A stretch of DNA of 64,000 bases from an uncultured Acidobacteriota bacterium. GTDB lineage: Bacteria > Acidobacteriota > Thermoanaerobaculia > UBA5066. Position numbers and translations under genes: made by a program. Numbering within the stretch: the stretch's first letter is position 1; each line of letters begins with the position of its first letter. The stretch is from assembly GCA_963839295.1 (NCBI GenBank), contig CAWIUK010000015.1, positions 43,347-107,346 on the forward strand, read 5' to 3'. Of the stretch, positions 1,777 through 63,251 are shown piece after piece. The notes under the pieces were generated by a model that made no database searches, was not told the origin of the DNA, and worked only from the letters and a program-made list of their open reading frames with translations.

Positions 1777-2231
1777 CGGCTGCGCGGATCCTCGTCGTCG
1801 AGGACGGACGCGAGTACGTGGACGGGTTCGCGCGCCTCGCGGCGGCGAAGGGAGTCGAGGCGGCGTTCGTGCGCGCGGGCAGCCTCGCCGAGGCGCGGGA
1901 GGCGCTCCGGGAGGGAAGGCCCGACGCGGTCTTCCTCGACGTCGTCTTCGACCGGACTCCGGAGCCCGATCTCGCGGGGGACCTCGACGCGCTCGTCGCG
2001 CGCACCGGCGGCGACCGCGAGCGCGCCGTCCGGCACCTCGCGACGAACCAGGGCTTCTACGTCCTCGACGCGCTCGCGGACGAGCTCGCGGGCGTCCGCG
2101 TCGTTCTCGCGTACGACTTCACGGGGGAAGAGAAGAGGCTGGCTTCGCTCCAGGAGCGCTTTCCGATGCTCAGCGGCCTGCCGGATGGAGCCTCTCTGGG
2201 CGCCGCGCTGGACGATCTGCTTCGGAAATAG
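1773..2231 (+). CDS. response-regulator receiver (REC) domain protein
   Basis: GTG start at 1773 overlaps the upstream stop (GTGA). Translation is VTAARILVVEDGREYVDGF...AVFLDVVFD, a REC-like fold. It sits inside the artefactual long frame 174..2231. Stop TAG is at 2229-2231. Confidence 0.5.
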   Translation: MTAARILVVEDGREYVDGFARLAAAKGVEAAFVRAGSLAEAREALREGRPDAVFLDVVFDRTPEPDLAGDLDALVARTGGDRERAVRHLATNQGFYVLDALADELAGVRVVLAYDFTGEEKRLASLQERFPMLSGLPDGASLGAALDDLLRK

Positions 2232-2370
2232 AAGACGAAGAGGAAGAGTTCTTAGAAGGTAATTGCAGCCCGGGCGCCGGCGGCCCCCGCGAGTTGCGGC
2301 GCGGCCGATGCCCTCTTAACCTTCTAAGAGAATCTTCTCTTCGGTTCTTCTCTCGGTCTCTCTTCTTTCG
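2231..2370. repeat. inverted-arm repeat unit 1 (forward arm, GC-rich core, reverse arm), intergenic, filling the whole gap between two convergent stop codons
   Basis: Forward arm GAAGACGAAGAGGAAGAGTTCTTAGAAGGTAA at 2231-2262. A GC-rich palindromic core lies at 2263-2311. Reverse arm CCTCTTAACCTTCTAAGAGAATCTTCTCTTCGG... at 2312-2368. The unit starts at the last base of the TAG stop of the receiver gene and ends 1 bp before the stop of the GAPDH-like gene (2372). Confidence 0.75.
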
Positions 2371-3520: not shown

Positions 3521-4183
3521 GTGCTAACGTCGCCGGCCGTGACGCCCGCCGCGGACGCGACGCTCGTTTCCGTGGAGATCCAGGGGCCCGCGGGACCGCT
3601 GGAGGGCATTCTGCGGGCGCCGGCTCTTCCGGCCGGCGCCGCGGTCGTCGCGCACCCCCACCCTCGCCACGGGGGGACGATGCACACGAAGGTCGTCCAC
3701 CGCGCGGCGAAGCTCCTCTCCGAACGGTTCTCCCTCGCGGCGCTGCGGTTCAATTTCCGGGGCGTCGGGGCGTCGGGCGGCTCGTACGACGAGGGCCGCG
3801 GGGAGACCGAGGATCTCGTCGCGGCCGGCGAGTGGATCAGGCGACGCCAGCCGGGAGGGCCGTTCGTCCTCTCGGGCTTCTCGTTCGGCTCGCTCTGCGC
3901 CCTTCGGGCCGCCGCGCGCCTCGTGCCTGACGTCCTTCTCCTGATCGGCCTCCCCGTGGACCGCTGGGACGGCGCGGCCCCCGCAACTCTCGCGGCTCCC
4001 GTCGTCTGGATCCAGGGCGACCGCGACGAATTCAGCCCGCCGGAGAAGTCGCGCGCGATCGCGAAGGCGCGGGGCTGGACGTTTCTCTCCGTTGCCGGCA
4101 CGGACCACTTCTTCGCGGGGAAGCTGGACGAGTTCGAAGCCGCTGCCGGTGACGCGCTCGAGAAGGCTCTCGGGAGCGCGTGA
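3521..4183 (+). CDS. alpha/beta hydrolase fold protein
   Basis: HPHPRHGGTMH...LSGFSFGS nucleophile-elbow-like motif, 220 aa. Its stop overlaps the next start (ATGA). Confidence 0.55.
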   Translation: MLTSPAVTPAADATLVSVEIQGPAGPLEGILRAPALPAGAAVVAHPHPRHGGTMHTKVVHRAAKLLSERFSLAALRFNFRGVGASGGSYDEGRGETEDLVAAGEWIRRRQPGGPFVLSGFSFGSLCALRAAARLVPDVLLLIGLPVDRWDGAAPATLAAPVVWIQGDRDEFSPPEKSRAIAKARGWTFLSVAGTDHFFAGKLDEFEAAAGDALEKALGSA

Positions 4184-4758
4184 TGTTCGAGGAGAACGAA
4201 CGGGATTTGCTTAGAAAGGTCGCGAGGGAGGCGGCGGCCCGTGCGATGGGGCTGCGTCTCGCGCCAGCGGCCGCTCGACCCGCCGCGCAGCCGGCCGCGG
4301 CCTTCGCTCCGCCTGCATCCCCTCTTTCACTCGAAGAAATCTCCGGTCTCTTCGTCACATGGCTGAAGGACGGCCGGCCTCGCGGAAGAAGCGGGACTCT
4401 CGCCCCGGATGCGCCCCTCTTTACACTCGTAGAAACTCTCGCGGTGGACGCGCTCCTGCACGACCCGCGCGTCCCGCCCGCAACCGCGAAGGAGCTCCCG
4501 CGCTACTCGCCCCGCATCTCCGTCCTCTCCGCCTTCGAAGAAATCTCCTCTTCCTCCACCGTCGTCGTCGGCACGCACGGCGTGATCGCGGAAAAGGGGA
4601 AGCGGTGGGGAGTCGTCCTTCCCCAGGACGCGGACGGGCTGGGATGGGACGGCGACCGCCTTGTCGGGCAGGCCTGCCTCAGGGCCGGCCTGCCGGAAGA
4701 GAGCTGGAGGGCCGCCGGGTCGGTCCGACTCCGCCGCTTCACGGCCGAGACCTTCTGA
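4180..4758 (+). CDS. AMMECR1 domain protein; carries repeat arms in-frame
   Basis: AMMECR1-like blocks GLFVTW...RDPRVPP...VGTHGVIAEKGKRWGVVLPQ...LRRFTAETF. Codons 3-16 (EENERDLLRKVARE) are written by a diverged forward arm GAGGAGAACGAACGGGATTTGCTTAGAAAGGTCGCGAGGGAG. Confidence 0.7.
   Translation: MMFEENERDLLRKVAREAAARAMGLRLAPAAARPAAQPAAAFAPPASPLSLEEISGLFVTWLKDGRPRGRSGTLAPDAPLFTLVETLAVDALLHDPRVPPATAKELPRYSPRISVLSAFEEISSSSTVVVGTHGVIAEKGKRWGVVLPQDADGLGWDGDRLVGQACLRAGLPEESWRAAGSVRLRRFTAETF
4189..4352. repeat. inverted-arm repeat unit 2, inside AMMECR1 and in-frame
   Basis: Forward-type arm at 4189-4230. Reverse-type arm CCCTCTTTCACTCGAAGAAATCTCCGGTCTCTTCG at about 4319-4352. Rare codons (TTG, CTT, AGA, AAG, AGG) are used. 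Confidence 0.55.
4521..4558. repeat. solo reverse-type arm inside AMMECR1 (GCCTTCGAAGAAATCTCCTCTTCCTCC)
   Basis: Shares an exact 20-mer CCTTCGAAGAAATCTCCTCT with the reverse arm at 42551-42570. Encodes SAFEEISSSS in frame. Confidence 0.6.
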
Positions 4759-5593: not shown

Positions 5594-6412
5594 TCAGGCC
5601 CGGCTGAGAACGAAAAGGAGGAGCCCCGCCGCCACGGCCGCGTTCAGCGATTCCACGCTCCCGCCGAGCGGGAGCGTGAGCCGCCGGTCGAGCGCGGCCT
5701 CGATCCCGGGCGAGATCCCGTGTCCCTCGGAGCCGACGACGAGGACGAGCGGGCGGACCTTCGCGGCCCGGTCGGGCGGCTCTCCGCCGTGGGCTTCGGC
5801 GCCGGCGAGGATGGCGCCGAAGGAGCGCGCCCACGCGATCGCCTCGGGCTGCGCGACGCGGGCCGCGATCGGCACGCGCAGGGCGCTCCCCGCCGACGCG
5901 CGCAGCGCACGGGGCGAGTACGGAAAGGCGCAGCCGGGCGTCGCGACGACGCCGGCGACGCCAAACGCCTCGGCGCAGCGGACGATCGCGCCGACGTTCG
6001 CGGGGTCCTGGATTCCGTCGAGGAGAAGAAAGAGAGAGGACGAAGAAGGGGATTTCTTCGAAGGTGAAGAGAGGGAAGACAGCGTTCGGTGCGGGGGCGG
6101 AGCGAGAGCCGCGATGCCGCGCGTCGACGGGAGATTGGAAAGCCTCTTCAGGACGCGGGGCGAAACCGTCGTTACGCGAGGGGGCGGCGTCGCTCCGCCG
6201 CCTCCCGGCGCTCCTTCCCCTCTTACCCTTCTAAGAAAATCCGCGTTCTCTTCGGACTTCTCATCGATGACGAACATTTCTTCCAGAGGCACGCCCGCGT
6301 CGAGGGCTTCTTCCACCATCCGTCTGCCCTCGAGGAGCATGCGGTCGCCGGCGGCGACCGCGCGGGCGGCCGCGACGATACGCGGGTTGGAGGGGGAGTC
6401 GATCCGGGACAT
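5594..6412 (-). CDS. TrmH/SpoU-family RNA 2'-O-methyltransferase carrying an in-frame repeat unit
   Basis: SpoU blocks LFLLLDGIQDPANVGAIVRCAEAFGV, LVLVVGSEGHGIS, LPLGGSVESLNAAVAAGLLLF. A roughly 65-aa low-complexity segment (SEENADFLRRVRGEG...SSPSKKSPSSSS) is encoded by repeat unit 3. Confidence 0.7.
   Translation of the reverse strand: MSRIDSPSNPRIVAAARAVAAGDRMLLEGRRMVEEALDAGVPLEEMFVIDEKSEENADFLRRVRGEGAPGGGGATPPPRVTTVSPRVLKRLSNLPSTRGIAALAPPPHRTLSSLSSPSKKSPSSSSLFLLLDGIQDPANVGAIVRCAEAFGVAGVVATPGCAFPYSPRALRASAGSALRVPIAARVAQPEAIAWARSFGAILAGAEAHGGEPPDRAAKVRPLVLVVGSEGHGISPGIEAALDRRLTLPLGGSVESLNAAVAAGLLLFVLSRA
6021..6262. repeat. inverted-arm repeat unit 3, inside the trmH-like CDS and in-frame
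   Basis: Forward arm GAGGAGAAGAAAGAGAGAGGACGAAGAAGGGGATTTCTTCGAAGGTGAAGAGAGGGAAGAC at 6021-6080. Core of about 135 bp. Reverse arm CCTCTTACCCTTCTAAGAAAATCCGCGTTCTCTTCGGACTTCTC at 6217-6262. Confidence 0.8.
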
Positions 6413-7640: not shown

Positions 7641-8839
7641 AATTCGCCGCACGCGCGTCCCGCGTCGCCGGGTCGGCGACGCTCGAAGTGATGAGGACGG
7701 CCGCCGCCCTGAAGGCGAGGGGCGTGGACGTCATCGACCTGGGCCCCGGCGAGCCGGACTTCCCGACGCCCGAGTTCGTCAAGGAGGCCGCGATCCGGGC
7801 GATCCGGGCGAACGTCACGCGTTACACCGACACCGTCGGCACCGCCGAGCTGCGCGCCGCCATCGCGGAGCGCTACGCCCGCGAGTGGAACGCGCCGTGG
7901 GGGCCGTCCGACGTGGTCGTGACGAACGGCGGCAAGCAGGCGCTCCACACCGCGATCCTCGCGCTCTTCGAGGAAGGGGACGACGTCCTCGTTCCCGTGC
8001 CCTACTGGGTGTCGTTTCCGGAGATGGTGAAGCTCTCCGGGGCGCGTCCCGTCTTCGTGCCGACGTCGCCCGCGCGGGGCTTCCGCCTGACCGCGGCGGA
8101 CGTCGAGGCCGCGGCGACGCCCGCGACGCGCGGCATCCTCGTGAACACGCCCACGAACCCGTCGGGCGCCGTCATGGACCCCGCGGAGATCGAGAAGATC
8201 GTCCGCCTCTGCGCCGCGCGCGGCTGGATGTTCCTCTTCGACGAGTGCTACGACCGCTTCGTGTTCGAGGGGAGGCACCTCTCGGCGGCCGCCCTCGCGG
8301 CGGAGTTCCCCGAAACGGTGGTCCTCGCGGGCACGTTCAGCAAGACGTACGCGATGACGGGCTGGCGCATGGGCTACGCCTGCGCCGCGAGGCCCGTCGC
8401 CGAGATGATCGGGCGGCTCGTGGGCCACGCGACGTCGAACGTCTGCTCCGTGACCCAGGCCGCGGCGCTCGAGGCCCTGAAGAGGCCCGACGAGAGCGCT
8501 CGGGCGATCGAGGCGATGCTGGACGAGTACCGGCGCCGCCGCGCGTGGCTGATCCCGGCGCTGAACGCGCTGCCGGGCTTCGCGTGCCCGGCGCCGGGCG
8601 GGACGTTCTACGCGTTCCCGGACGTCTCCGCGCACTACGGCCGGACGATCGCGGGCGTCGCCGTGAAGGACTCGGCCTCGTTCGCGAAGGCGCTCCTCGA
8701 CGGCGTGGCCGTCGCGGTGACGCCGGGCTCGGCCTTCGGCGAGGACCGCTGCGTGAGGATCTCGTTCGCCATGTCGCTCGACCGCCTGAAGGAGGCCGTG
8801 CGGCGCCTCGACGGGGCCCTCGCGGCCGGTCAGCGGTAG
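7637..8839 (+). CDS. aspC: pyridoxal-phosphate-dependent aspartate/aromatic aminotransferase (class I)
   Basis: MKFAARASRVAGSATLEV...NGGKQAL...SFSKTYAMTGWRMGY (PLP lysine region), 400 aa. This is the real gene inside the artefactual long ORF 6563..8839. Confidence 0.8.
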   Translation: MKFAARASRVAGSATLEVMRTAAALKARGVDVIDLGPGEPDFPTPEFVKEAAIRAIRANVTRYTDTVGTAELRAAIAERYAREWNAPWGPSDVVVTNGGKQALHTAILALFEEGDDVLVPVPYWVSFPEMVKLSGARPVFVPTSPARGFRLTAADVEAAATPATRGILVNTPTNPSGAVMDPAEIEKIVRLCAARGWMFLFDECYDRFVFEGRHLSAAALAAEFPETVVLAGTFSKTYAMTGWRMGYACAARPVAEMIGRLVGHATSNVCSVTQAAALEALKRPDESARAIEAMLDEYRRRRAWLIPALNALPGFACPAPGGTFYAFPDVSAHYGRTIAGVAVKDSASFAKALLDGVAVAVTPGSAFGEDRCVRISFAMSLDRLKEAVRRLDGALAAGQR

Positions 8840-12270: not shown

Positions 12271-13848
12271 TCAGCCGGGGGGAAACATGCTCGTGAGGAG
12301 GTGCTTCTGCACCTTCCCGAGTGCGTTCCGGGGCAGCTCCGCGACGGCGATGACGTCGCGGGGCTTCTTGTAGTCCGCGAGGTTGGCGGCCGCGAAGGAG
12401 GCGACCTCCGCGCAGGCCGCCGCGGGCTCGCAGCCCGCGGCGAGGACAAGGGCGGCGGCGACGCGCTGGCCCCAAACGCGGTCCTCGACGCCGACGACGG
12501 CCGCGTCCCTCACGGACGGGTGGCGCCGGAGGACGTCCTCGATCTCCCGCGCGGCGATCTTGTAGCCGCCGCTCTTGATGATGTCGACGGACTTCCGGCC
12601 CGCGATCGTGATGTAGCCGTCCGCGCTCCTGCGCGCGACGTCGCCGGTCAGGAACCAGCCGTCGCGGAAAGACGCGGCCGTTTCGGCTTCCCGGCCCCAG
12701 TAGCCGTTCATGATCCCGTCGCTCTTCACGACGATCTCGCCCAGCTCGCCGTCCGCGACGTCGCGCCCCGCGTCGTCGACGATGCGGACGGCGCCGCCCG
12801 GCGCCGGCAGGCCGACGGTGCCGGGCCGGCGCTCGCCGTCGTACGGGTTTGAGAGCGTGAACAGCGTCTCGCTCATCCCGTAGCGCTCGAGGATCGCGTG
12901 CCCCGTCCGCGCGCGGAAGGCCTCGAAGTCCGCCGCGGGCAGGGGCGCGCTGCCGGCGGTGAAGAGGCGCGCCCGCCGCAGGGCCGCGGCGGCCTCCGGG
13001 TGCGCGTCGAGGTGCTCGAGGAGCCGCACGTACATCGTCGGGACGCCCATGAAGACCGTCGCGCCCTCCTCCGCGAAAGCCCGGACCACGCGGGCCGCGT
13101 CGAAGCGCGCCTCGAGGAGGAGCGTCAGGCCGTTCACGAGCATCCCGGCGACGCCGAGGACGAGCCCGTGCACGTGGAAGAGCGGCAGCGCGAGGACGAG
13201 ACGGTCTTCCGGCGTGAAGCGCCACAGGCCCGTCACCGACGCCGTGTTGTCCGCGAGCGCCCTGTACGACAGCGCGACGCCCTTGCTCTTGCCGGTCGTG
13301 CCCGACGTGTAGATGAGCATCGCCACGTCCCCGTCCCGGGGTGCCGTGGCTCGAGCGGGGTCCGAAGAGAGATTCTTCCTGGAAGGTGAAGAGGGGGAGC
13401 CCGCAGCGGCCGCGGACGGCGGTCCCGCCGGGAACGCCTCTCGAAGCGCGATCACGTGCTTCAGATGCTCCGGGCACCTTCCAAGAATCTCTCTTAGAAC
13501 CCCGGTGCATTCTTCATCTTCGCCGCCCACGAGCACCGCCGCCGCCCCCGAGTCCTCGAGGATGTGCCGGGCCTCGTCCGCCTTGTAACGCGTGTTGATC
13601 GGGACGTGGACGACGCCGGACTCCAGGTGGGCGACGAACGCGGCGACCACCTCGGGGCACGTCTCGGCGAAGACGGCGACGCGGTCGCCGCGGCGGATGC
13701 CGAGGGACCTCAGCCTGTCAGCGTAGTGATTCGCGAGACGCTGTATCTCCTCGAACGTGTAAGAGCGCCCGTTCCACACCACGGCCGGATGCGCCGAGCG
13801 GCTCTGCAGGCAACCGAGGAGGCGATCGTGCGCAGCGGCAGTGGTCAT
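12271..13848 (-). CDS. AMP-dependent synthetase/ligase (acyl-CoA synthetase family) carrying an in-frame repeat unit
   Basis: AMP-binding motif [14 protein letters not shown], a C-terminal ...GKVQK block, 525 aa. The most likely start is ATG at 13846-13848 (MTTAAAH); the track start at 13866 is a TTG inside a repeat arm. Confidence 0.8.
   Translation of the reverse strand: MTTAAAHDRLLGCLQSRSAHPAVVWNGRSYTFEEIQRLANHYADRLRSLGIRRGDRVAVFAETCPEVVAAFVAHLESGVVHVPINTRYKADEARHILEDSGAAAVLVGGEDEECTGVLREILGRCPEHLKHVIALREAFPAGPPSAAAAGSPSSPSRKNLSSDPARATAPRDGDVAMLIYTSGTTGKSKGVALSYRALADNTASVTGLWRFTPEDRLVLALPLFHVHGLVLGVAGMLVNGLTLLLEARFDAARVVRAFAEEGATVFMGVPTMYVRLLEHLDAHPEAAAALRRARLFTAGSAPLPAADFEAFRARTGHAILERYGMSETLFTLSNPYDGERRPGTVGLPAPGGAVRIVDDAGRDVADGELGEIVVKSDGIMNGYWGREAETAASFRDGWFLTGDVARRSADGYITIAGRKSVDIIKSGGYKIAAREIEDVLRRHPSVRDAAVVGVEDRVWGQRVAAALVLAAGCEPAAACAEVASFAAANLADYKKPRDVIAVAELPRNALGKVQKHLLTSMFPPG
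13362..13520. repeat. inverted-arm repeat unit 4, inside the acyl-CoA synthetase CDS and in-frame
   Basis: Forward arm CCGAAGAGAGATTCTTCCTGGAAGGTGAAGAGGGGGAG at 13362-13396. Reverse arm CACCTTCCAAGAATCTCTCTTAGAACCCCGGTGCATTCTTCATCTT at 13475-13520. On the coding strand the arms encode GEDEECTGVLREILGRCP and GSPSSPSRKNLSSD. Confidence 0.8.
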
Positions 13849-13849
13849 G

Positions 13850-13896
13850 CCCTCTTCACCTTCCAAGAAAATCTTCTTCCGTTCCGTTCTTCGTCT
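13850..13896. repeat. solo arm filling the whole 48-bp gap between the livF stop and the acyl-CoA synthetase start; it supplies a Shine-Dalgarno-like GGAAGGTGAAGAG 4-7 nt upstream of the ATG
   Basis: CCCTCTTCACCTTCCAAGAAAATCTTCTTCCGTTCCGTTCTTCGTCTC. On the minus strand this reads ...GATTTTCTTGGAAGGTGAAGAGGGC-ATG. Confidence 0.75.
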
Positions 13897-14616
13897 CTAG
13901 ACCGACGCGTACCCGAGGTACCGGTCGCGGACGCCGTGGTCGTTGCGGAGGTCCTCGGCGCGGCCCGAGAGCGTGATCGTGCCCGTCTCCATCACGTACG
14001 CCCGGTCCGCGAGCGCGAGCGCATGCGGGACGTTCTGCTCGACGAGGACGATCGTGACGCCGCGCCCGCGGATGGCCCTGAGCGACGCGAACACCTCCTT
14101 GACGAGGAGAGGGGAGAGGCCGAGGGCGGGCTCGTCGAGGAGGAGGAGGCGCGGCTGCGCCATCAGGCCCCGCCCGATCGCGCACATCTGCTGCTCGCCG
14201 CCCGAGAGCGTGCCCGCCTTCTGGTGGATCCGGCGCTTCAGGACCGGAAACATCGCGAAGACCTCCTCGAGCGTCGCGTCGGCCTTCGCGCGCGCGGCGC
14301 GCGGGTAAGCCCCCATCCGGAGGTTCTCGAGGACCGACATCCCCGGCCAGAGCTGGCGGCCCTCGGGAACGAGGACGAGGCCGCGGGCCGCGAGCGCGTG
14401 CGCCGGCGACCCGCCCACGACGTCGCCTTCGAAGACGACGCGCCCCGCGCGCGGCGCGAGGAGGCCGGCGACGGTCTTGAGCGTCGTGGACTTGCCGGCG
14501 CCGTTCGCGCCGACGAGCGTCACGACCTCGCCTTTCTCGACGGAGAAGGAAAGGCCGCGCACGGCCTGGACGTCGCCGTAGAACACGTCGACCGCTTCGA
14601 CGGAGAGGAGGCTCAC
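13897..14616 (-). CDS. livF: branched-chain amino-acid ABC transporter ATP-binding protein LivF (operon 1)
   Basis: Walker A GANGAGKST, signature LSGGEQQM, Walker B LLLLDEP. The GTG start overlaps the livG stop (GTGA). Confidence 0.85.
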   Translation of the reverse strand: MSLLSVEAVDVFYGDVQAVRGLSFSVEKGEVVTLVGANGAGKSTTLKTVAGLLAPRAGRVVFEGDVVGGSPAHALAARGLVLVPEGRQLWPGMSVLENLRMGAYPRAARAKADATLEEVFAMFPVLKRRIHQKAGTLSGGEQQMCAIGRGLMAQPRLLLLDEPALGLSPLLVKEVFASLRAIRGRGVTIVLVEQNVPHALALADRAYVMETGTITLSGRAEDLRNDHGVRDRYLGYASV

Positions 14617-20164: not shown

Positions 20165-20189
20165 GGTGGTCTCCTGCAGCTCGGAAGTG

Positions 20190-20280
20190 TGTCCGTCTAA
20201 CGATATCGAGTTCAGCGGCGAGAGGGAAGGAGCGCAGCGACTGACGCCGAGTCCGCGACAATGAGGTGTTAGCCGCCGCT
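20190..20280 (-). repeat. attC-like site 1 (about 85-bp family)
   Basis: GTCTAAC at 20195-20201, internal imperfect palindrome, GTTAGCC at 20268-20274. It abuts the TAG stop of the toxin gene. Confidence 0.55.
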
Positions 20281-21393: not shown

Positions 21394-21397
21394 GTTT

Positions 21398-21490
21398 GCG
21401 GGGTCTAACGATATCGAGTTCAGCGGCGAAGAGGAAGGAGCCAAGCGACTGACGATGAGTCCGCTGCAACGAGGGGTTAGGCGGCGCCTA
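21398..21490 (-). repeat. attC-like site 3 (about 85-bp family)
   Basis: GTCTAAC at 21403-21409 through GTTAGGC at 21476-21482. Nearly identical to sites 1 and 4. The TAG stop of the upstream gene overlaps its end. Confidence 0.55.
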
Positions 21491-21967: not shown

Positions 21968-21977
21968 GGCGCTTCTG

Positions 21978-22068
21978 TAGCCGCCTAACGATATCGAGTT
22001 CAGCGGCGAGAAGGAAGGAGCGCAGCGACTGACGCCGAGTCCGCGGCAATGAGGTGTTAGGCGGCTGT
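21978..22068 (-). repeat. attC-like site 4 (about 85-bp family)
   Basis: GCCTAAC at 21983-21989 through GTTAGGC at 22056-22062. Confidence 0.55.
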
Positions 22069-41388: not shown

Positions 41389-42021
41389 GTGGAGCGCTTC
41401 CTCGTCGACGGCCCCGCGCGCGCGCCTCTCACGCTCGTCCTCGCGCACGGCGCGGGGGCGCCGATGGACTCGCCCTTCATGAACGCCGTCGCGTCCGGTG
41501 TCGCGAAGGAGGGATTCCGCGTCCTGAGGTTCGAGTTCCCGTACATGCACGCGCGGCGCGGGGGGAAGAGGAAGCCGCCGGACCGCGAGCCCGTGCTCCG
41601 GCACGCGTGGCTCGACGCGATCGGCGAGGCGGCCGGGAAGAAGGGGCCTTCGTCCGTGGCGATCGGCGGCAAGTCGATGGGCGGCCGGATCGCGAGCATG
41701 GTCGCGGACGAGGCGGGGGTCGCGGGTCTCGTCTGCCTCGGCTACCCGTTCCATCCGCCGGGCCAGCCCGACAAGCTGCGCGTCGCGCACCTCGAAGGCC
41801 TCGGCACTCCCGCCCTGATCGTTCAGGGCGAGCGAGACACCTTCGGAAACCGCGAGGAGATCGCCCGCTATCACCTTTCAAAGAAGATCCGGATCTTCTT
41901 ACTCCCCGATGGTGACCATTCGTTCAAGCCGCGCGCGTCGTCGGGCCGGACGGAGAAGCAGAACCTCGACGAGGCGATCGCGATCGTCAGCGGGTTTCTC
42001 GCGTCTCTCCGATCCTCATGA
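41389..42021 (+). CDS. alpha/beta hydrolase (KANL3/Tex30-like)
   Basis: GTG start. LTLVLAHGAGAPMDSPFM...GGKSMGGRIAS...GERDTFG...DGDHS. Confidence 0.6.
   Translation: MERFLVDGPARAPLTLVLAHGAGAPMDSPFMNAVASGVAKEGFRVLRFEFPYMHARRGGKRKPPDREPVLRHAWLDAIGEAAGKKGPSSVAIGGKSMGGRIASMVADEAGVAGLVCLGYPFHPPGQPDKLRVAHLEGLGTPALIVQGERDTFGNREEIARYHLSKKIRIFLLPDGDHSFKPRASSGRTEKQNLDEAIAIVSGFLASLRSS
41868..41906. repeat. solo palindromic arm-like segment inside the hydrolase CDS (TCACCTTTCAAAGAAGATCCGGATCTTCTTAC)
   Basis: Contains a perfect 20-bp palindrome AAGAAGATCCGGATCTTCTT. Encodes LSKKIRIFLL using a TTA codon. Weaker family member. Confidence 0.35.
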
Positions 42022-42808
42022 CCCACGCCCGCTCGTCCGGATAGCCCGCGGCGCGTGCGGCCGCGCGGAAACGGACGGGGGGCTCGAACGGCGGCTCGTC
42101 CGTGAGGACGATCGTGCCCCAGTGCATCGCGACGAGCGTCGCGGCGCGGAGGTCGCGTCCGGCCGCGACGGCCTCCTCGGGATCGAGGTGGACCGGCCGC
42201 ATGATCGACGCCGGCTCGTACGCGCCGATCGGCAGCAGCGCGGCGTCGAACGGCCCGTGCTCGCGGCCGAGGTCTGAGAAAACCGGTCCGTATCCGGTGT
42301 CACCCGCGAAGTACAGCGAGAGGGACGGCGACTGGATCTTCCACGAGCACCAGAGCGTCGCGTTGCGGTCGAACGGCGTCCGGCCGGAGAAGTGGATGGC
42401 GGGAAGACAGGTAAGCGAGATCGAAGAGGAAGAAGAAGGATTTCTTAGAAGGGTGCCCTCTCCCCAGACCAGCTCCCGGACATCCGAGTAATGCCGCGAC
42501 GCGAAGAACGAACCGAGCCCGGAAGGCACAATGGCTGCCGCCGCCCCTCTTACCTTCGAAGAAATCTCCTCTACGGATCTCGCATCGAGATGGTCGTAAT
42601 GATTGTGGGAAATCAGGACCGCGTCGATGGGCGGCAGCGCGTCGATCGACAGGCCCGCCGGGACGTAGCGCTTCGGGCCGAGGCCGGGGACCGGGCTCGC
42701 GAAGTCGGAGAGGAACGGATCGGTCAGGATCGTGAAGCCGCCGGTGCGGACAAGGAAGCAGGCGTGACCGAGCCATGTGAGGCTCTCGGGGCCGGCGGCG
42801 GCGAGCAT
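41987..42808 (-). CDS. MBL-fold metallo-hydrolase (NAPE-PLD-like, Lactamase_B_2) carrying an in-frame repeat unit
   Basis: LISHNHYDHLD...IVPSGLG...ELVWGEG...LPAIHFSGRT...LWCSW...YFAGDTGY...FGPFDAALLPIGAYEP. The convergent 3' overlap with the hydrolase gene is 35 bp. Confidence 0.7.
   Translation of the reverse strand: MLAAAGPESLTWLGHACFLVRTGGFTILTDPFLSDFASPVPGLGPKRYVPAGLSIDALPPIDAVLISHNHYDHLDARSVEEISSKVRGAAAAIVPSGLGSFFASRHYSDVRELVWGEGTLLRNPSSSSSISLTCLPAIHFSGRTPFDRNATLWCSWKIQSPSLSLYFAGDTGYGPVFSDLGREHGPFDAALLPIGAYEPASIMRPVHLDPEEAVAAGRDLRAATLVAMHWGTIVLTDEPPFEPPVRFRAAARAAGYPDERAWVMRIGETRETR
42403..42578. repeat. inverted-arm repeat unit 5, inside the MBL-fold CDS and in-frame
   Basis: Forward arm GGAAGACAGGTAAGCGAGATCGAAGAGGAAGAAGAAGGATTTCTTAGAAGGGTG at 42403-42456. 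Reverse arm CCCTCTTACCTTCGAAGAAATCTCCTCTACGG at 42545-42576. The arms encode ARSVEEISSKVRG and GTLLRNPSSSSSISL, in loops whose length equals the loops in NAPE-PLD homologues. Confidence 0.8.
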
Positions 42809-43031
42809 CGCCTTTGCCTCCTGGTGCGGGACGACGTGGCCCGCAGGCACGGCGGGCGGGCGGCCCGTCGCCCGGCGGAGGAAGAACGGCCCGAAGTCGG
42901 AGGGGCCGGCGGTCTGCCGGGGACTGCCTGGCGGGTTCCGGAAGCGCACGCGGCAGGATAGCGGCCCGCCGGCGGGTTAGCATCCGCCACATGACACGCG
43001 ATCGAGCGGCCGCGGGTCCCGCGGCGGCTCC

Positions 43032-44864: not shown

Positions 44865-46595
44865 TCACAGGTGCTTCAGCGCCTCGAGCGCGGGCTCGAG
44901 GCGCTGGCGGCGTCCGAAGAAGTCGGCCCACGGGTCGCGCCTTTTCAGGCGCGCCGCGAAGTTCCCGATCGTGAAGTCCTCGGCGCGGAGCGACGGAGTC
45001 ACCTCGCTCCACGCGAGGGGCGTCGAGACGGGCGCGTGCGGGCGGCGCCGCACCGAGTAGGGCGAGACGACCGTCTGCCCGAAGGCGTTGCGGAACGAGT
45101 CGAGGAAGACGCGCCCCTTTCGCGCCGCGATCCGCATCTCCATCGTGAGGTCCTTCGGCCATGCGGCGGCGAGCCGCGTCCCGAGCGTCTTCGCGAACCA
45201 CGTGACGGCCTCGGTGCCCGGGCCGCGCACGATCGGGACGAAGACGTGGAGGCCCTTTCCGCCGGAGGTCTTCACGTACGAGACGAGCTCGAGGGCGTCG
45301 AGGGCCTGCTTGACCTTCAGCGCCGCGGAGGCGGCGTCGGAGATCAGGCCAGAGTCGGGGTCGAGGTCGAAGCAGACCCAGTCGGGCCTGTCGAGGTCGT
45401 CGGCGCGGCTGCCCCAGACGTGGACGGCGATGCAGCCGAGGTTCGCGAGGGCGAGCTGCGTCTCGAGCGCACCGCCCACGACCGTGTTCGTGATCTTGCG
45501 TTCCTCTCCGTGGCGCACGGCGACCGTCGGCGTCCCGGGAGGCATGCTGCCGGGCTTTTCCTTCTGGTAGAAGCACTCTCCACCGAGGCCGTCCGGGCAG
45601 CGCTCGAGAGAGAGCGGCCGGTCCTCGACCCACGGACGCAGCCGCTCGAAGACGCCCGCGTAGAACGCGACGAGATCGCCCTTCGTCCATCCCTCCTCGG
45701 GCCAGAAGACCTTGTCCGGGTTGGAGACGGGCACGGGGAAGACGCGGGAAGAAGACGAAGAGGGACGGGGGGATTTCCTGGAAGGTGAAGAGGGCGGATC
45801 ATCCGCGGCTGCGCGCGGCGGCGACACAATGCGCGCCGGCGTCGCCTTCGCCCTCTTACCATTCGAAGAGATCTTCGGTTTCTCCTCGGACCCTGAATTT
45901 CGAGGCCGCGAGTGCCATACGGCCGGGGAGTCTTTCTTCTTTCGCTCGAGGAGTTTCGGGTTCGCGAGGAGCTTCTCGACCTCGGCGACCGGGTCGCCCG
46001 TGGAGGCCTTCTCGACGTCGCCGCCCTCGTCGATCGCGATCTGCGTCAGGAGGCGGTTCGACGCGACCGATCGCGGGCGCGTGCCGGCGACGTCCTCGTC
46101 CGAGGCGAAGTCGTCGCGGTGCTTGATGAGGAGCCACGCCGGCTTCGCCGAGCCGCCCCAGCCCTTCGTGCGAACGAGGACCCACGAGCCCTTCAGCTTC
46201 TCGCCGTGGAGCGTGAACTTGAGGTCGCCTTTCCCGAGTGCGGCGTCGACGTCCGGCGACTCGGGCGTCCACGTCCCGCGGTCCCAGACCATCACCGTGC
46301 CGCCGCCGTACTCCTCGGCCGGGATGATCCCCTCGAAATCCGCGTACTCGAGCGGGTGGTCCTCCACGTGGGAGGCCATCCTCCTGACCGCCGGGTCGAG
46401 GGACGGGCCCTTCGGCACCGCCCACGAGAGGAGGACGCCGTTCCATTCGAGCCGGAAGTCGTAATGGAGCGCGGTCGCCCGGTGCTTCTGGACGACGTAC
46501 AGGAGGCCGCGCCGCCGGCTCTTCGGTTTCGCCGCGCCCGGCGGCTCGGGCGTGACGGCGAACCGGCGTTTCCGGCGGTATTCGTCGAGCGGCAT
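44865..46595 (-). CDS. ligD: LigD-type 3'-phosphoesterase (PE) plus polymerase/primase domain protein, with no ligase domain
   Basis: PE domain DEYRRKRRF..TPEP...VVQKHRATALHYDFRLEWNGVLLSWAVPKGPS. Pol domain CFYQKE...VCFDLDPDSG...SGGKGLHVFVPI. The low-complexity interdomain linker carries repeat unit 6. Confidence 0.8.
   Translation of the reverse strand: MPLDEYRRKRRFAVTPEPPGAAKPKSRRRGLLYVVQKHRATALHYDFRLEWNGVLLSWAVPKGPSLDPAVRRMASHVEDHPLEYADFEGIIPAEEYGGGTVMVWDRGTWTPESPDVDAALGKGDLKFTLHGEKLKGSWVLVRTKGWGGSAKPAWLLIKHRDDFASDEDVAGTRPRSVASNRLLTQIAIDEGGDVEKASTGDPVAEVEKLLANPKLLERKKKDSPAVWHSRPRNSGSEEKPKISSNGKRAKATPARIVSPPRAAADDPPSSPSRKSPRPSSSSSRVFPVPVSNPDKVFWPEEGWTKGDLVAFYAGVFERLRPWVEDRPLSLERCPDGLGGECFYQKEKPGSMPPGTPTVAVRHGEERKITNTVVGGALETQLALANLGCIAVHVWGSRADDLDRPDWVCFDLDPDSGLISDAASAALKVKQALDALELVSYVKTSGGKGLHVFVPIVRGPGTEAVTWFAKTLGTRLAAAWPKDLTMEMRIAARKGRVFLDSFRNAFGQTVVSPYSVRRRPHAPVSTPLAWSEVTPSLRAEDFTIGNFAARLKRRDPWADFFGRRQRLEPALEALKHL
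45748..45890. repeat. inverted-arm repeat unit 6, inside the ligD interdomain linker and in-frame
   Basis: Forward arm GAAGAAGACGAAGAGGGACGGGGGGATTTCCTGGAAGGTGAAGAGGGCGG at 45748-45797. Reverse arm CCCTCTTACCATTCGAAGAGATCTTCGGTTTCTCCTCGG at 45851-45890. Confidence 0.8.
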
Positions 46596-53316: not shown

Positions 53317-53350
53317 AGAAGACGAAGAGAAGAGTTCCTTAGAAGGTGGT
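53316..53350. repeat. solo forward arm starting on the last base of the transporter stop codon
   Basis: (TG)AAGAAGACGAAGAGAAGAGTTCCTTAGAAGGTGGT, followed directly by a terminator hairpin. Confidence 0.7.
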
Positions 53351-53392
53351 ACGGGCCGGGCGGGTCTTTCCGCCCGGCCTTTTCTTTTGCGC
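53351..53392 (+). terminator. rho-independent terminator
   Basis: GGGCCGGGCGGG-TCTTTC-CGCCCGGCC followed by TTTTCTTTTG. Confidence 0.7.
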
Positions 53393-56606: not shown

Positions 56607-56676
56607 GCAGAGAAGAACCGGGGATTTCTTGGAAGGTGAAGAGACCGGCGCGGTTCCTCGTGAGGCCCGCGCCGGC
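56607..56676. repeat. solo forward arm plus GC hairpin filling the gap between the aldehyde-dehydrogenase stop and the convergent aminotransferase stop
   Basis: AGAGAAGAACCGGGGATTTCTTGGAAGGTGAAGAG at about 56609-56643, then ACCGGCGCGG-TTCCTCGTGAGGC-CCGCGCCGGC. Confidence 0.7.
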
Positions 56677-60205: not shown

Positions 60206-63172
60206 CTAACCGCCGACGACCGCACGGCAGCGGGCGCAGAGCCCGTCTTCGCCCGGCTCGACGTCCTTGCGCACCTGCCAGCACCGAGGGCACTTGGCGC
60301 CCACGGCGGGGCGGGCGAGGACGCCTTCGACGCCCGAATCCCGCACGACGGACGCCACTGCCAGGACCTCGGCGAGTTTTTCTTCTGAAAGGGAAAGAAG
60401 GGCGAGCGCTTCGTCGAGCCCGGCGCCGCGCCCGACGACGGCCTCGGCCTGCGCCGCGGACCCGACCTTGTTCTCGCGACGCAGCGGCTCGAGGGATTGC
60501 AGGAACTCCGCCCGGAGCGCGAGGACTCGTCCCCACGCCTCTCTTTCATTCGCGGAAATCTCCCGAGTCTTGAGGTCGCTCCAGCTCTTCAGGAAGAGCG
60601 CGGCCGGATCCGCCGCGTTCCCCGGCAGCGACTCGAAGATCTCCTCTGCCGTGAACGGGCAGATCGGAGAGAGGGCGACCGCGATCGTCTCCACGAGCTT
60701 CCAGGCGGCCGTCTGGGCCGAGCGGCGGACGGGGTCGCCCGGCGCGAGGACGTAGAAGGCGTCCTTGCGGACGTCGCACCAGAACGCGGAGAGGTCGGTC
60801 GTGACGAGGTCGAGGAGGCGGCGCGCCACCGCGTGGAACTCGTAGCGTCCGTAGGCGTCGCGCGCCTCGGCCGCGAAACGCGCCGCGGCGTCGAGGACCC
60901 AGCGCTCGAGCGGCTCGAGCTTCGCGTCCGGCACCGCGTCCTTCGCGGGCTCGAAGTCGAAGAGGTTCGAGAGGAGGAAGCGGGCCGTGTTCCGGATCTT
61001 GCGGTACGCCTCGGCCGTCCGCTGGAGGATCTCCTTCGAGAGCGGGTCGTCGTTCGTGTAGTCGAGCGACGCAACCCAGAGGCGGATGACGTCGGCACCC
61101 TCCGTCTTCAGGAGGTCCTGCGGCTCGATCGTGTTCCCGAGCGACTTCGACATCTTCCGGCCGTCGCCCGCGACGACGAACCCGTGAGTCAGCACGACGT
61201 CGTACGGGGCGCGGTCCGTGAGCGCGACCGAGGTCAGGAGCGACGACTGGAACCAGCCGCGGTGCTGGTCGTGGCCCTCGAGGTACATCACGGGCACCGG
61301 CGGCTGCGCCGTGTACGGGTCCGCGAGGCCGTAGTCGCCCGAGCGCAGGACCGCCGCATGCGACACGCCGGAGTCGAACCAGACGTCGAGGATGTCCTTC
61401 AGCTTCTCGAAGTTCGTCCCGCCGCAGAGGGAACACGAGGCCGAAGAGGAAGACGAAGAGGGAGAAGAAGATCTTCCTAGAAAGTAAGAGGGAGGGAAAG
61501 CGTCGTCGTACCAGGCGTTCGCTCCGTGCTCGCGGAACGCCTCTCTTACCCTTTCAAAGAAATCCTCTCTTTCTTTCTTTTCGTTCTCTCCGACGTTGCC
61601 CTCGACTCTTGGGAAATGGCTGACGATCCCCCTCTCTTTGCAGTCCACGCAGCGAAGAAACGTGATCGGCGAGCCCCAGCGGCGCTGCCGGGAGATGGTC
61701 CATTCGAGGCGGTTGTCCACCATCGCGCCGATGCGGTTCTCGCTGTACGACGGGATCCACTCCACGCGGCCGCGGATCTCGGCCATCGCGCGGTCGCGGA
61801 GGGCCCCGAGGTCGATGAACCACTGGTGCGTCGCCCGGAAGATGACCGGGTTCTTGCAGCGCCAGCAGTGGGGGTAGGAGTGGGGCGAAGATTTCTGCGA
61901 GAGGAGGACGGAGGTTCCGGCGCGTCCGTCCCGCAGGGCCTCGAGGACCGCGAGGTTCGCGTCCTCGGCTTCGCTTCGCGGCGAAACGACCCTTTTTCCT
62001 CGAAGGAATTCCGGGGCATTCACGTCGTAGGAGCCGCCCTCGTCCACCGGGCAGAGCGCCGGATCGTCGACCTTGAACCCCGCGCGCCGGACGACCTCGT
62101 AGTCGTCGCGGCCATGCCCGGGCGCGGTGTGGACGAGGCCGGTGCCGTCCGTCGTCGAGACGTGGTCGCCGAGGAGGAAGCCGAAATTGTCGTAGGGATC
62201 GGACGCGAAGGGGCGGGCGTAGCGCAAGGCCGGCAAGGCCCCGGCGATCGCCTCGCCGCTTTTCTTGGAATGGGGAAGAGGGTGTGCGTCGCGCCAGCCG
62301 AGCGCGGCCGTCACCTGCGGGACGAGCGATTCGGCGACGAGGTAGGCGGCGCCCGGCTCTGATTCCCTTCTCAGAAGAACGTATTCGATCTTCGGGCCCA
62401 GCGCGATGGCACGGTTCGCAGGCAGGGTCCACGGGGTTGTCGTCCAGATGACGGCGTAGAGTTGCCGCACGTCGCTCGACTGAGTGAGAGCGCCCCACAC
62501 ACCCTTCAAAGAATCTTCTCTTAGGGGCATCGCCACGTAGATCGACCAGTCCGTCTTGTCCTCGTACTCGATCTCCGCTTCGGCGAGCGCCGTGCGGTCG
62601 TGGACGCACCAGAGGACGGCCTTGAAGCCGAAGGAGACGAGGCCCTTCTCGACGAACCGCCCGAACGCCCGCGCGATCTCGGACTGGTACGAGAAATCCA
62701 TCGTCCGGTACGGCGCCTTCCAGGCGCCGAGGACGCCGAGGCGCATGAAGTCGGTGCGCTGGACGTCGATCCACTTCTCGGCCGAGGCACGGCAGGCGTC
62801 GCGGATCGCGACGTCCGACATCCCGCGCTTCTTCGGGCCGAGCTCCTTGTCGACCTTGAGCTCGATCGGAAGGCCGTGGCAGTCCCAGCCGGGCACGTAC
62901 GGCGCGTCGAAGCCGGCGAGCGTCCTGGAACGGACGACGAGATCCTTCAGGATCTTGTTCATCGCCGTCCCCATGTGGATACGCCCGTTCGCGTACGGCG
63001 GACCGTCGTGGAGGAGGAATCCGGGGGCGCCCTGCCGTGCGGCGCGGATGCGGCCGTAGAGATCGCCCTCCTGCCAACGCGCGAGGCGCGCGGGCTCCCG
63101 TCTCGGGAGGTCCGCCTTCATGGGGAACCCCGTCTTCGGGAGGAGGAGCGTGGATTTCCAGTCGCGGCCCAT
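60206..63172 (-). CDS. ileS: isoleucine--tRNA ligase (type 1, C-terminal Zn finger) carrying in-frame repeat arms
   Basis: [12 protein letters not shown] (HIGH region), KMSKS, C-terminal CPRCW...CARC. 988 aa. Confidence 0.9.
61443..61600. repeat. inverted-arm repeat unit 7, inside ileS and in-frame
   Basis: Forward arm GAAGAGGAAGACGAAGAGGGAGAAGAAGATCTTCCTAGAAAGTAAGAGGGAGGGAAAG at 61443-61500. Reverse arm CTCTCTTACCCTTTCAAAGAAATCCTCTCTTTCTTTCTTTTCGTTCTCTCC at 61543-61600. The arms encode [17 protein letters not shown] and [15 protein letters not shown]. Confidence 0.8.
62258..62525. repeat. inverted-arm repeat unit 8 inside ileS (about 240-bp spacing), with a further arm-like segment at about 62361-62385
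   Basis: CTTTTCTTGGAATGGGGAAGAGGGTG at 62258-62283 and CACCCTTCAAAGAATCTTCTCTTAGGGG at 62499-62526. Confidence 0.5.
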
Positions 63173-63251
63173 GTGAGCCGCGGAGGTTACATGATTCAGA
63201 TGGATCAGTCGGCCCTCGGGCGGCCCGTTCGTCCTTTACACTCCGCCGCGC

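Follow-up and report, generated by a model that had tools for sequence, protein, structure and literature searches.

The DNA analysed here is a 64,000-nucleotide (nt) stretch of an uncultured Thermoanaerobaculia bacterium (Acidobacteriota; GCA_963839295.1, contig CAWIUK010000015.1), to which we refer, at its full length, as the window. It contains a gene for a TrmH/SpoU-family RNA 2'-O-methyltransferase whose coding sequence holds two short facing sequences, or arms, that belong to a dispersed family. We found that these arms do not delimit one inserted unit: the sequence between them is native to TrmH, and most intragenic arms of the family replace native codons with little or no change in length. 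Sequence comparison shows the arms to be old and to be constrained as nucleotides. The best reading of this pattern is an undescribed family of putative recognition sequences in Thermoanaerobaculia, resembling either uptake sequences or REPINs, the inverted doublets of repetitive extragenic palindromic (REP) sequences.

The host gene is unremarkable apart from its arms. Its open reading frame (ORF) is intact at 272 residues, as the preliminary description had stated, being open from 5594 to 6412 on the minus strand with the Pfam domains present. The catalytic domain (PF00588, SpoU_methylase) matched at residues 127-267 (E = 4e-30; profile positions 2-142 of 142), the N-terminal domain (PF08032, SpoU_sub_bind, and PF22435, MRM3-like_sub_bind) at residues 24-102, and residues 3-268 gave a full-length alignment to RrmA of T. 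thermophilus (1IPA; 274 residues in total). Identity among the 120 orthologues listed was 54-100%, and the motifs QDPANVGA, GSEG.G.S and SLNAAVA were invariant across the 30 that were aligned. An AlphaFold2 (AF2) model (mean predicted local distance difference test, pLDDT, 86.9; predicted template modelling score 0.85) placed helices at residues 10-20, 29-38, 54-63 and 85-92 and strands at residues 25-28, 45-48, 79-83 and 100-104 of the N-terminal L30e-like domain, and pLDDT fell below 50 only at residues 68-73 and 117-123. The protein is an ordinary two-domain methyltransferase of the RlmB/RrmA type (1IPA, 1GZ0), with the same architecture, alignment over the full length and conserved catalytic motifs; what sets it apart is only how helix alpha2 and the interdomain linker are spelled in nucleotides, together with ~14 extra residues. 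Genome GC content is ~70%, and metagenome-assembled genomes that carry the label Thermoanaerobaculia or Acidobacteriota are the closest relatives. In two relatives' loci (L006, 10001-10844, and L030, 10001-10892; MFD05942.bin.2.82 and MFD04428.bin.1.167) the TrmH orthologue has an early frameshift and neighbouring orthologues are intact; our guess is that these are assembly errors, real pseudogenes being the alternative.

The preliminary description had taken the arms for the ends of a single arm-core-arm unit, encoding a low-complexity stretch of ~65 residues inserted into a linker. An imperfect inverted repeat is indeed present (6053-6079 and 6212-6238; 27 nt, 78% complementary, spacing 132 nt), both of its arms belong to the dispersed family, and GC content over them is 57-63% as compared with 70-80% in their surroundings, although the repeat would be weak if taken alone, without the family evidence. 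The first arm (18-mer match with 2 mismatches at 6220-6237 and nhmmer match at 6217-6266, both on the minus strand; E = 6.4e-4) codes for helix alpha2 of the N-terminal domain, at residues 54-63 of the AF2 model. In it the consensus TGAAG reads GTAAG (GGTGAAG to GGGTAAG), which, as read from the sequence, removes an in-frame TGA stop. The second arm matched the 18-mer exactly at 6054-6071 and the nhmmer profile at 6035-6073, both on the plus strand (E = 6.7e-6).

Residues 78-110 (RVTTVSPRVLKRLSNLPSTRGIAALAPPPHRTL), which lie between the arms, matched 1IPA (LEVSEAVLKKLSVRDNPAGLIALARMPERTL) residue for residue with high posterior probability (VSprVLKrLS...GiaALAppPhRTL against VSEAVLKKLS...GLIALARMPERTL). 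They comprise the strands at 79-83 and 100-104 and the helix at 85-92, the MRM3-like_sub_bind match reaches the last position of its profile within them, columns V83, L88, S92, R98, A102, A104, P106 and P107 are invariant in the 30 orthologues, and their synonymous variation is ordinary (codon identity 0.51). The core is the ancestral beta3-alpha3-beta4 of TrmH, neither low-complexity nor inserted. Nor is the linker clearly longer than in homologues, since the protein gains only 8 residues over 1IPA within residues 53-77 and 6 within residues 112-117. Most of the net insertion at the first site comes from a GC-rich local hairpin (6175-6210) that codes for about A68-P77 (APGGGGATPP), differs in length among orthologues and is shorter or missing in L003, L157, L158 and L156. 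What had been described as a 65-residue linker is an arm-spelled helix, a hairpin-encoded loop of ~10 residues, 33 native residues and an arm-spelled Ser/Pro linker of ~15 residues. On the suggested disordered surface loop the AF2 prediction is divided: residues 64-78 and 115-126 are low-confidence loops (lowest at 68-73 and 117-123), and arm-encoded residues 54-63 form helix alpha2.

Membership of the arms in a family rests on counts in the window and beyond it. With at most 3 mismatches allowed, the 18-mer TTCYTNGAAGGTGAAGAG matched the window 9 times where 0.12 matches were expected, and none of 100 shuffles reached 9. A profile made from 13 arms, used with nhmmer on the window and the relatives' loci, detected 16 arms in the window (~0.25 per kb), 10 of them inside ORFs with Pfam or PDB homology, and arms in 8 of 8 Thermoanaerobaculia loci fetched via TrmH; 0 of 6 outgroup loci (Sumerlaeia, Gemmatimonadota, Geobacter, a beta-proteobacterium, Chloroflexota) had any. 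An exact 20-mer occurred in at least 120 metagenome loci with a median GC content of 69%, their taxonomy being inferred from GC content and gene content only, and 2.9 million viral contigs scanned for the arm gave 0 matches. We regard the family as confined to a clade within Thermoanaerobaculia. Scanned in full against Rfam at gathering thresholds, the window gave no match, and a literature search returned nothing on the motif string, on Thermoanaerobaculia repeats or on MITEs (miniature inverted-repeat transposable elements) in Acidobacteria.

The conserved part of the arm is GATTTCTTNGAAGGTGAAGAGGG, in which the positions TTCTT.GAA.GG are more than 90% invariant; the outer flank is purine-rich, looser and frequently begins GTCCGAAGAG. 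Inspected by eye, the consensus has a mini-palindrome of only 9 bp (TTCTNAGAA) and lacks a GTAG or CGTC tag. None of the sigma-54, CodY, LexA and CIRCE operator consensus sequences fits the arm. Arms separated by under 300 nt, in the window and in the relatives' and metagenome loci, formed 28 pairs in '+-' order, 0 in '-+', 3 in '++' and 1 in '--', and in 5 of 5 window pairs the purine-rich arm came first and the pyrimidine-rich arm second. Spacers between paired arms ranged from 2 to 250 nt, were rich in GC and shared no sequence among copies, and singlets were common. The arm-core-arm architecture is real, and conservation is limited to the arms. Coding sequence of low complexity, rich in purines and in Ser, would in a genome of high GC content by itself yield outer flanks that are purine or pyrimidine runs in loose register, as seen here, and some 20-mer matches are indeed unrelated (a conserved FLEGEEGESLLSP coding motif; lower-GC contigs L045, L055 and L065). 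The shuffle controls and the polarity count nevertheless refute chance or composition as the explanation, and exact 18-20-mers in intergenic DNA and in three reading frames and the conservation of rare codons add to this; we give it practically no weight.

A single mobile palindrome, similar to a Rickettsia palindromic element (RPE) or a MITE and inserted as an in-frame block in a TrmH surface linker, would explain why the arms are inverted repeats of a dispersed family and why the frame is kept. The interdomain linker of LigD does hold a whole arm-core-arm unit, metagenome units with 2-5 nt between their arms allow that a compact palindrome may be the original mobile form, and arms are tandemly duplicated in proteins P0077 and P0060. 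For TrmH, the alignment to 1IPA contradicts block insertion: the arms enclose 33 residues that are native and needed for the structure, the first arm is alpha2, and a 240-nt unit would add ~80 residues as against 8 + 6 gained. Arms surround native sequence in two other genes also. Cores of different units share no sequence, unlike the interiors of MITE copies, and the arms are ancient and syntenic rather than polymorphic. No target-site duplications were found (direct repeats of 0, 1, 2 and 3 nt flanked 22, 19, 2 and 4 of 47 non-redundant pairs) in a test weakened by loose element boundaries, the outcome being judged chance-like without a shuffled control. We regard block insertion in TrmH as highly improbable. 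What stands of the in-frame placement first proposed is that the arms are in frame and that the family occurs in other genes too; no block was inserted. Close orthologues that lack arms and have the same linker, which had been named as evidence against the insertion, were not found: every close orthologue carries the arms, so that this is not a recent insertion. In L159 the arms are degraded at the DNA level and the helix peptide EDFLKRL is kept in ordinary GC-rich codons.

Other forms of mobility were considered. In the window and the relatives' loci, no long '+-' pair was seen to enclose a transposase; five '+-' pairs 0.3-4 kb apart are candidates for the ends of an autonomous element. An intragenic invertible segment was rejected, since the segment is colinear with the window in the 30 aligned and 41 further orthologues; the arms are, moreover, only 78% complementary. 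IS5-family ends begin GGAAGGTG. A link to that family was rejected as well: the conserved arm continues well outside the GGAAGGTG point, and there is no YTAR target duplication.

Several local features of the TrmH locus deserve mention beside these results. A 13-nt inverted repeat (6093-6105 and 6190-6202; 92% complementary) pairs the hairpin by the first arm with the native ALAPPP codons before the second and prolongs the predicted arm stem inward, possibly by chance in GC-rich sequence. Some orthologues (L001, 5623-5673; L002, 10368-10418; L030, 10381-10434; proteins P0003, P0005, P0012, P0019, P0023, P0029, P0062 and P0096) have an extra in-frame block of ~50-60 nt directly behind the second arm. 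This block is patchy among orthologues, codes for ~20 residues (e.g. SSDATRRAPTTSLRGSEAES), has at its borders two inverted 8-mers (CTTCGGAC and GTCCGAAG) that represent the arm's outer-end motif, and was seen at the TrmH locus only, within the window and the relatives' loci. Arm peptides occur in tandem in P0077 (EDFPRRVRGEG then ERFLRRGRGAG) and P0060 (LLPSRKFPSS then LLPSQKSSSS), which suggests that local arm duplication is possible.

Comparison with homologues lacking an arm at the same place revealed how arms sit in coding sequence. In the NAPE-PLD-like gene the first arm region (ARSVEEISSKVRGAAAAIVP) spans 20 residues, as does its counterpart in human NAPE-PLD (4QN9), and the second arm adds 3. 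The first-arm peptide REILGRC of the acyl-CoA synthetase aligns to native DEILRKQ of L157, with a 1-residue gap just after, and synonymous changes of ATC to ATT and of CTC to CTT are among the differences. Overprinting with little or no alteration of length was also seen in the AMMECR1 and IleRS-like genes. A second TrmH subclade (L156, P0111, P0113-P0116, P0118-P0120) carries its first arm ~10 codons upstream, in another frame and over beta2, as the peptide (K/R)EIF(F/L)EGEE (KEIFFEGEEG in L156), with no length change relative to 1IPA. L156 has no arm at alpha2, and its native helix EADLLRQAAERG aligns ungapped to the arm peptide NADFLRRVRGEG of the window. Its second arm occupies the same site, where two compensating 1-nt indels cause it to be read as LHLSKSL. 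The exact 18-20-mers turn up both in intergenic DNA and, within genes, in three reading frames. Where the frame would give TAG or TAA, the consensus has a base other than A at its central N, so that the stop is avoided, and the frame is kept in all arm-bearing ORFs (TrmH, acyl-CoA synthetase, NAPE-PLD-like, LigD, AMMECR1 and IleRS-like). Candidate origins of new arms are stepwise substitution, short-patch templated conversion from other copies and quasi-palindrome template switching. The unit in LigD (47399-44865 translation) lies at about residues 504-550, between LigD_N (residues 304-410) and LigD_Prim-Pol (residues 572-824), and may be a true insertion.

A C-terminus near the start of the window provides a further case in which native codons and arm sequence are interchangeable. 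In L002 (~14110-14140) and L005 (~8675-8703) the last codons and stop of the converging gene spell an arm, GAA GAT CTT CTT AGA AGG TAA (EDLLRR*). The window counterpart (2205-2231) reads GAC GAT CTG CTT CGG AAA TAG (DDLLRK*) with a separate arm downstream.

Both age and nucleotide-level constraint are evident in the TrmH orthologues. The arm peptides E[DE]FLRRVRGEG and SPSKKSSSS persist in orthologues down to ~60% identity, across the 30 aligned and in most of the 120 listed. The arms themselves occur in TrmH orthologues of as little as 57% identity, and in 5-8 genomes arms occupy syntenic sites in the TrmH, acyl-CoA synthetase and AMMECR1 genes as well as in one intergenic spacer. A codon alignment of seven orthologues showed that A/T-ending codons are kept in the first arm (TTT CTT AGA AGG GTA AGA GGG GAA GGA) and that the second keeps TCA CCT TCN AAG AAA. 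Codons ending in A or T make up 15 of 26 in the TrmH arms as compared with 32 of 246 elsewhere (Fisher p = 9e-7), and GC content at third codon positions is 0.44 against 0.88. Synonymous-codon identity rises only slightly in the arms, to 0.755 as compared with 0.657 (standard deviation 0.077), because codon bias makes most GC-ending codons identical anyway, and this measure is therefore insensitive; we used a test of A/T-ending codons instead. Their third base was retained in 76% of orthologue comparisons within the arms and in 29% elsewhere (p = 2e-13, with related genomes counted as independent). L159 spells EDFLKRL in part as TTC CTC AAA CGG CTC and has a truncated second arm.

Selection could instead act on a stem formed by the two arms in mRNA, for example as an RNase III or decay-control site or in translation pausing, the first arm containing a motif like a Shine-Dalgarno sequence (AGAAGGUGA) and the second one similar to the 16S rRNA tail that acts as anti-Shine-Dalgarno sequence. 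Consistent with this, the predicted fold pairs the TrmH arms, an intergenic unit folds as a hairpin, the polarity of purine-rich 5' and pyrimidine-rich 3' arms fits a terminator-like or RNA hairpin module, and one solo arm is the apparent ribosome-binding site of the acyl-CoA synthetase gene. In contrast, partner arms showed no covariation (20.5 identities of 38 positions against 21.0 ± 0.4 for random arms, in ungapped registers and 47 non-redundant pairs only), and their shared deviations from the consensus numbered 127 against 131 ± 10 expected. Across 13 strand-assigned pairs there was no bias towards G-U wobbles or excess of G-U over A-C on the transcribed strand (27 sense, 23 antisense and 98 non-wobble mismatches), and each 38-nt arm pair has ~10 mismatches, mostly non-wobble. 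Solo arms are common, the TrmH pair differs in place and frame between the two orthologue subclades, and no Rfam family matched. An RNA structural element therefore appears improbable to us, if less so than block insertion.

We tentatively favour, with doubt still slightly outweighing confidence, a reading in which the arms are sequence-specific recognition sites for a trans-acting factor in the manner of REP/REPIN sequences, intergenic units serving in 3'-end formation and intragenic copies being tolerated overprints. The TrmH arms are two separately embedded, facing copies of a ~25-40-nt sequence, each with the GATTTCTTNGAAGGTGAAGAGGG core and a purine-rich outer flank; copy 1 spells helix alpha2, with a small GC hairpin added beside it, and copy 2 the Ser/Pro-rich interdomain linker. 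The basic unit consists of a purine-rich arm, a variable GC-rich core (2-250 nt) and a pyrimidine-rich arm in fixed polarity. Intergenic units sit just behind stop codons, around terminator hairpins; most intragenic arms take the place of native codons, in any frame that gives a tolerable peptide, and leave the consensus where a stop would arise. Selection or drive acting on nucleotides would hold each arm to the consensus, and neither the protein nor pairing with the partner would do so; since the constraint is on nucleotides rather than on protein or pairing, each arm is most likely a recognition site used in facing pairs. The logic would be that of REP/REPIN sequences and RAYT, the REP-associated tyrosine transposase, with a factor belonging to the host or to a resident element. 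The data show that the arms form a family, that the TrmH core is native, and that the arms are old, constrained as nucleotides, fixed in polarity and overprinted on codons. The existence of the factor, its nature and the form of its target (duplex DNA, folded single-stranded DNA or RNA) are what we infer from this pattern.

Several points weigh against this reading. No trans-acting factor, transposase or RAYT gene was found in the 64 kb of this genome and the ~20-kb loci of relatives. REP/REPIN sequences are extragenic, and each REP is a palindrome with a GTAG or CGTC tag (PMC3733652), neither of which is true of the arms: ~2/3 of these (10 of 16) are intragenic, and they are not stem-loops and have no such tag. 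At 23 bases or more, the motif is longer than would be expected of a site bound by a protein. The arms can pair, since the 256-nt segment of TrmH is predicted to form a single extended hairpin (-120.6 kcal/mol; z = -5.3; 0 of 200 shuffles as good), and room is left for a structural role; the null covariation result and the conservation statistics also carry the limits given with them above. Change may have run in either direction, from native helix to arm or from an arm decaying into ordinary codons.

The strongest rival to recognition by a REPIN-like factor is a drive of the kind that maintains uptake sequences, although we consider it rather unlikely. The arm would be a signal for DNA uptake or recombination, copies would arise by point substitution and persist because arm-bearing DNA is preferentially taken up and recombined, and facing pairs would double as terminators. 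This explains overprinting best, namely that it occurs without length change where the native peptide already resembles one arm translation, and that ~2/3 of the window arms are intragenic, in several frames with stops avoided and with essential genes included. The occurrence of arms at orthologous sites across genera and of intergenic copies at terminators, the 0 matches in viral contigs and the lack of arms in a low-GC, cassette-like region of the window (19.5-22.5 kb) also agree with it. It does not explain the strict '+-' polarity, which holds inside genes too (28 against 0) and is unexpected for independent signals. Uptake signal sequences (USS) of Pasteurellaceae and DNA uptake sequences (DUS) of Neisseriaceae are lineage-specific motifs that accumulate in coding regions by substitution and form terminators as inverted pairs between genes. 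The arms are likewise lineage-specific and enriched in genes; they appear to arise by substitution where the frame tolerates it, and they hold their place at orthologous sites. They differ in that the motif is much longer, the density (~0.25 per kb) is several-fold below that of USS and DUS, and one pair polarity prevails even inside genes. The core TTCYTNGAAGG, moreover, nearly always occurs with a full arm (13 found; ~0.07 expected by a base-composition estimate), and there is no cloud of core-only sites.

Other known systems share some of these properties with the arms. REP/REPIN sequences with RAYT resemble them in being short high-copy units (~25-40 nt) that form inverted doublets of one polarity with a variable spacer and also occur as singlets, in their long persistence at orthologous sites, in their 3' intergenic position by terminators and in the conservation of units to a consensus. 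Bacterial MITEs (Correia, ERIC, RUP) likewise occur in many copies, have a short non-coding interior bounded by terminal inverted repeats and influence the transcription units beside them. The arm units differ from them in lacking target-site duplications and a conserved interior, in enclosing native coding sequence and in showing no presence/absence polymorphism among the relatives sampled. RPEs are whole units of ~100-150 bp whose insertion adds a contiguous peptide. Like the arms they form a dispersed palindromic family in many unrelated, even essential genes with the frame kept, their copies are old and common to related genomes, and the encoded peptides lie, for TrmH by prediction, partly at the protein surface. 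In the present case, however, the arms flank native sequence, mostly replace native codons, are read in several frames and belong to a 70% GC acidobacterial host, the comparison being by description and not by sequence; our literature search on RPEs returned Rickettsia and general MITE papers only. Of the RPE-like behaviour ascribed to the TrmH arms at first, a repeat within a gene with its frame kept is what survives, and nothing beyond.

A broader formulation, which we hold to be possible although less probable than the REPIN-like reading, is that this lineage writes a recognition motif of at least 23 bases into its own genes, spread by substitution or templated short-patch conversion and not by insertion, and read by a trans-acting protein or nucleic acid such as an uptake receptor, a domesticated transposase or a guide RNA. 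If true, this would be a new kind of genome-wide signal, combining uptake-sequence-like dynamics with REPIN-like pairing, in an uncultured class of Acidobacteriota. Such a motif would overprint helices and linkers of essential proteins and be kept over genus-level divergence. The usual interpretation of intragenic repeats is that of selfish insertions which the host tolerates. In the present case the data favour an overlay on existing codons that is conserved as nucleotides across genera, and imply a genome-wide signal competing with protein-coding constraint in perhaps one gene in ten. For annotation of these metagenome-assembled genomes it follows that strings such as SPSKKSSSSS and EDFLRRVRGEG in unrelated proteins are DNA motifs and not protein motifs. 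Candidate readers are an uptake system, a RAYT-like enzyme and a nucleoid or RNA factor; finding one would provide a directly testable question in a lineage with almost no genetics.

Features of the TrmH gene and of other family members, with coordinates in the window (a dot marks features without a strand)
Feature	Coordinates	Strand	Basis and remarks
TrmH/SpoU-family RNA 2'-O-methyltransferase gene	5594..6412	-	intact ORF, 272 residues
Second TrmH arm, forward on the plus strand, pyrimidine-rich 3' arm in mRNA	6035..6079	+	AGAGGACGAAGAAGGGGATTTCTTCGAAGGTGAAGAGAGGGAAGA; encodes S112-S126 (SSLSSPSKKSPSSSS), interdomain linker
Native coding sequence between the arms, residues 78-110	6083..6181	-	beta3-alpha3-beta4 of SpoU_sub_bind; in no repeat
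GC-rich local hairpin just inside the first arm	6175..6210	.	15-nt arms, 80% complementary, 6-nt loop
First TrmH arm, purine-rich, 5' in mRNA	6212..6266	-	GTCCGAAGAGAACGCGGATTTTCTTAGAAGGGTAAGAGGGGAAGGA; encodes E54-G67 (EENADFLRRVRGEG)
Arm / GC-rich core / arm unit between convergent genes	2222..2357	.	nhmmer 2222-2271 (+) and 2307-2357 (-)
Solo arm in AMMECR1 gene (4180-4758, +)	4521..4570	-	nhmmer E = 5.5e-5; Pfam AMMECR1; encodes LSAFEEISSSS
Convergent arm pair in acyl-CoA (malonyl-CoA-type) synthetase gene (12271-13848, -)	13352..13506	.	nhmmer; PDB matches 3NYQ, 4GXQ
Solo arm directly upstream of acyl-CoA synthetase start	13847..13896	-	exact 18-mer 13852-13869 (-); nhmmer E = 2.8e-6
Convergent arm pair in NAPE-PLD-like metallo-beta-lactamase-fold gene (41987-42949, -)	42414..42589	.	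nhmmer; native sequence between arms
Complete arm-core-arm unit, in frame, in LigD linker (phosphoesterase / primase-polymerase)	45749..45888	.	nhmmer; ORF translation
Solo arm right behind a stop codon	53317..53357	+	nhmmer E = 2.6e-3
Solo arm behind a stop codon, then GC hairpin, between convergent genes	56613..56648	+	exact 18-mer; nhmmer E = 9.7e-6
Solo, partly degenerate arm in class I aminoacyl-tRNA synthetase gene (60206-63235, -)	62490..62542	-	nhmmer E = 2.8e-3; Pfam tRNA-synt_1, Anticodon_1

In many intergenic arms the start lies at or just behind a stop codon, and a GC hairpin follows. The solo arm at 53317 abuts a canonical intrinsic terminator (53353-53380) with a 12-bp stem of which 10 pairs are GC, followed by TTTCTTTT. 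Fixed polarity would set a pyrimidine- or U-rich tract behind the hairpin in both directions of transcription. The unit at 2222-2357 is predicted to form one hairpin (z = -2.8), and L002, L005, L006 and L030 keep one of its arms nearly invariant in syntenic position, with a core and flanks that have diverged.

Three 88-nt direct repeats (20188-20275, 21396-21483 and 21976-22063) lie within the low-GC cassette-like region. They are 80-93% identical at spacings of 1208 and 580 nt, start with GTCTAAC or GCCTAAC, end with GTTAGCC or GTTAGGC and separate small minus-strand ORFs, one of them a DUF1801 gene, in a local GC content of 61-66%. In these respects they look like integron attC sites; no integrase domain was present in the neighbouring ORFs, and they may form an attC cluster without an integrase.

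Among the remaining intragenic arms, that in AMMECR1 is syntenic in L001, L002, L004, L005, L006 and L157, and the pair in the acyl-CoA synthetase gene in L002, L004, L006 and L030. The arm in the aminoacyl-tRNA synthetase gene, which we take to encode isoleucyl-tRNA synthetase (IleRS), codes for a 12-residue peptide, and E. coli IleRS presumably has a helix of similar length at this place. The arm ahead of the acyl-CoA synthetase gene (sequence GGAAGGTGAAGAGGGCATG), syntenic in L002, L004, L006 and L030, carries GGAAGGTGA in the Shine-Dalgarno position, 7 nt ahead of the ATG, and is by this position the apparent ribosome-binding site of the gene. The bases past this arm (ATGACCACTGCCGCTGCGCACG) resemble the starts of the cores of the units at 45793 and 2300, so that the similarity extends beyond the arm into the first codons.

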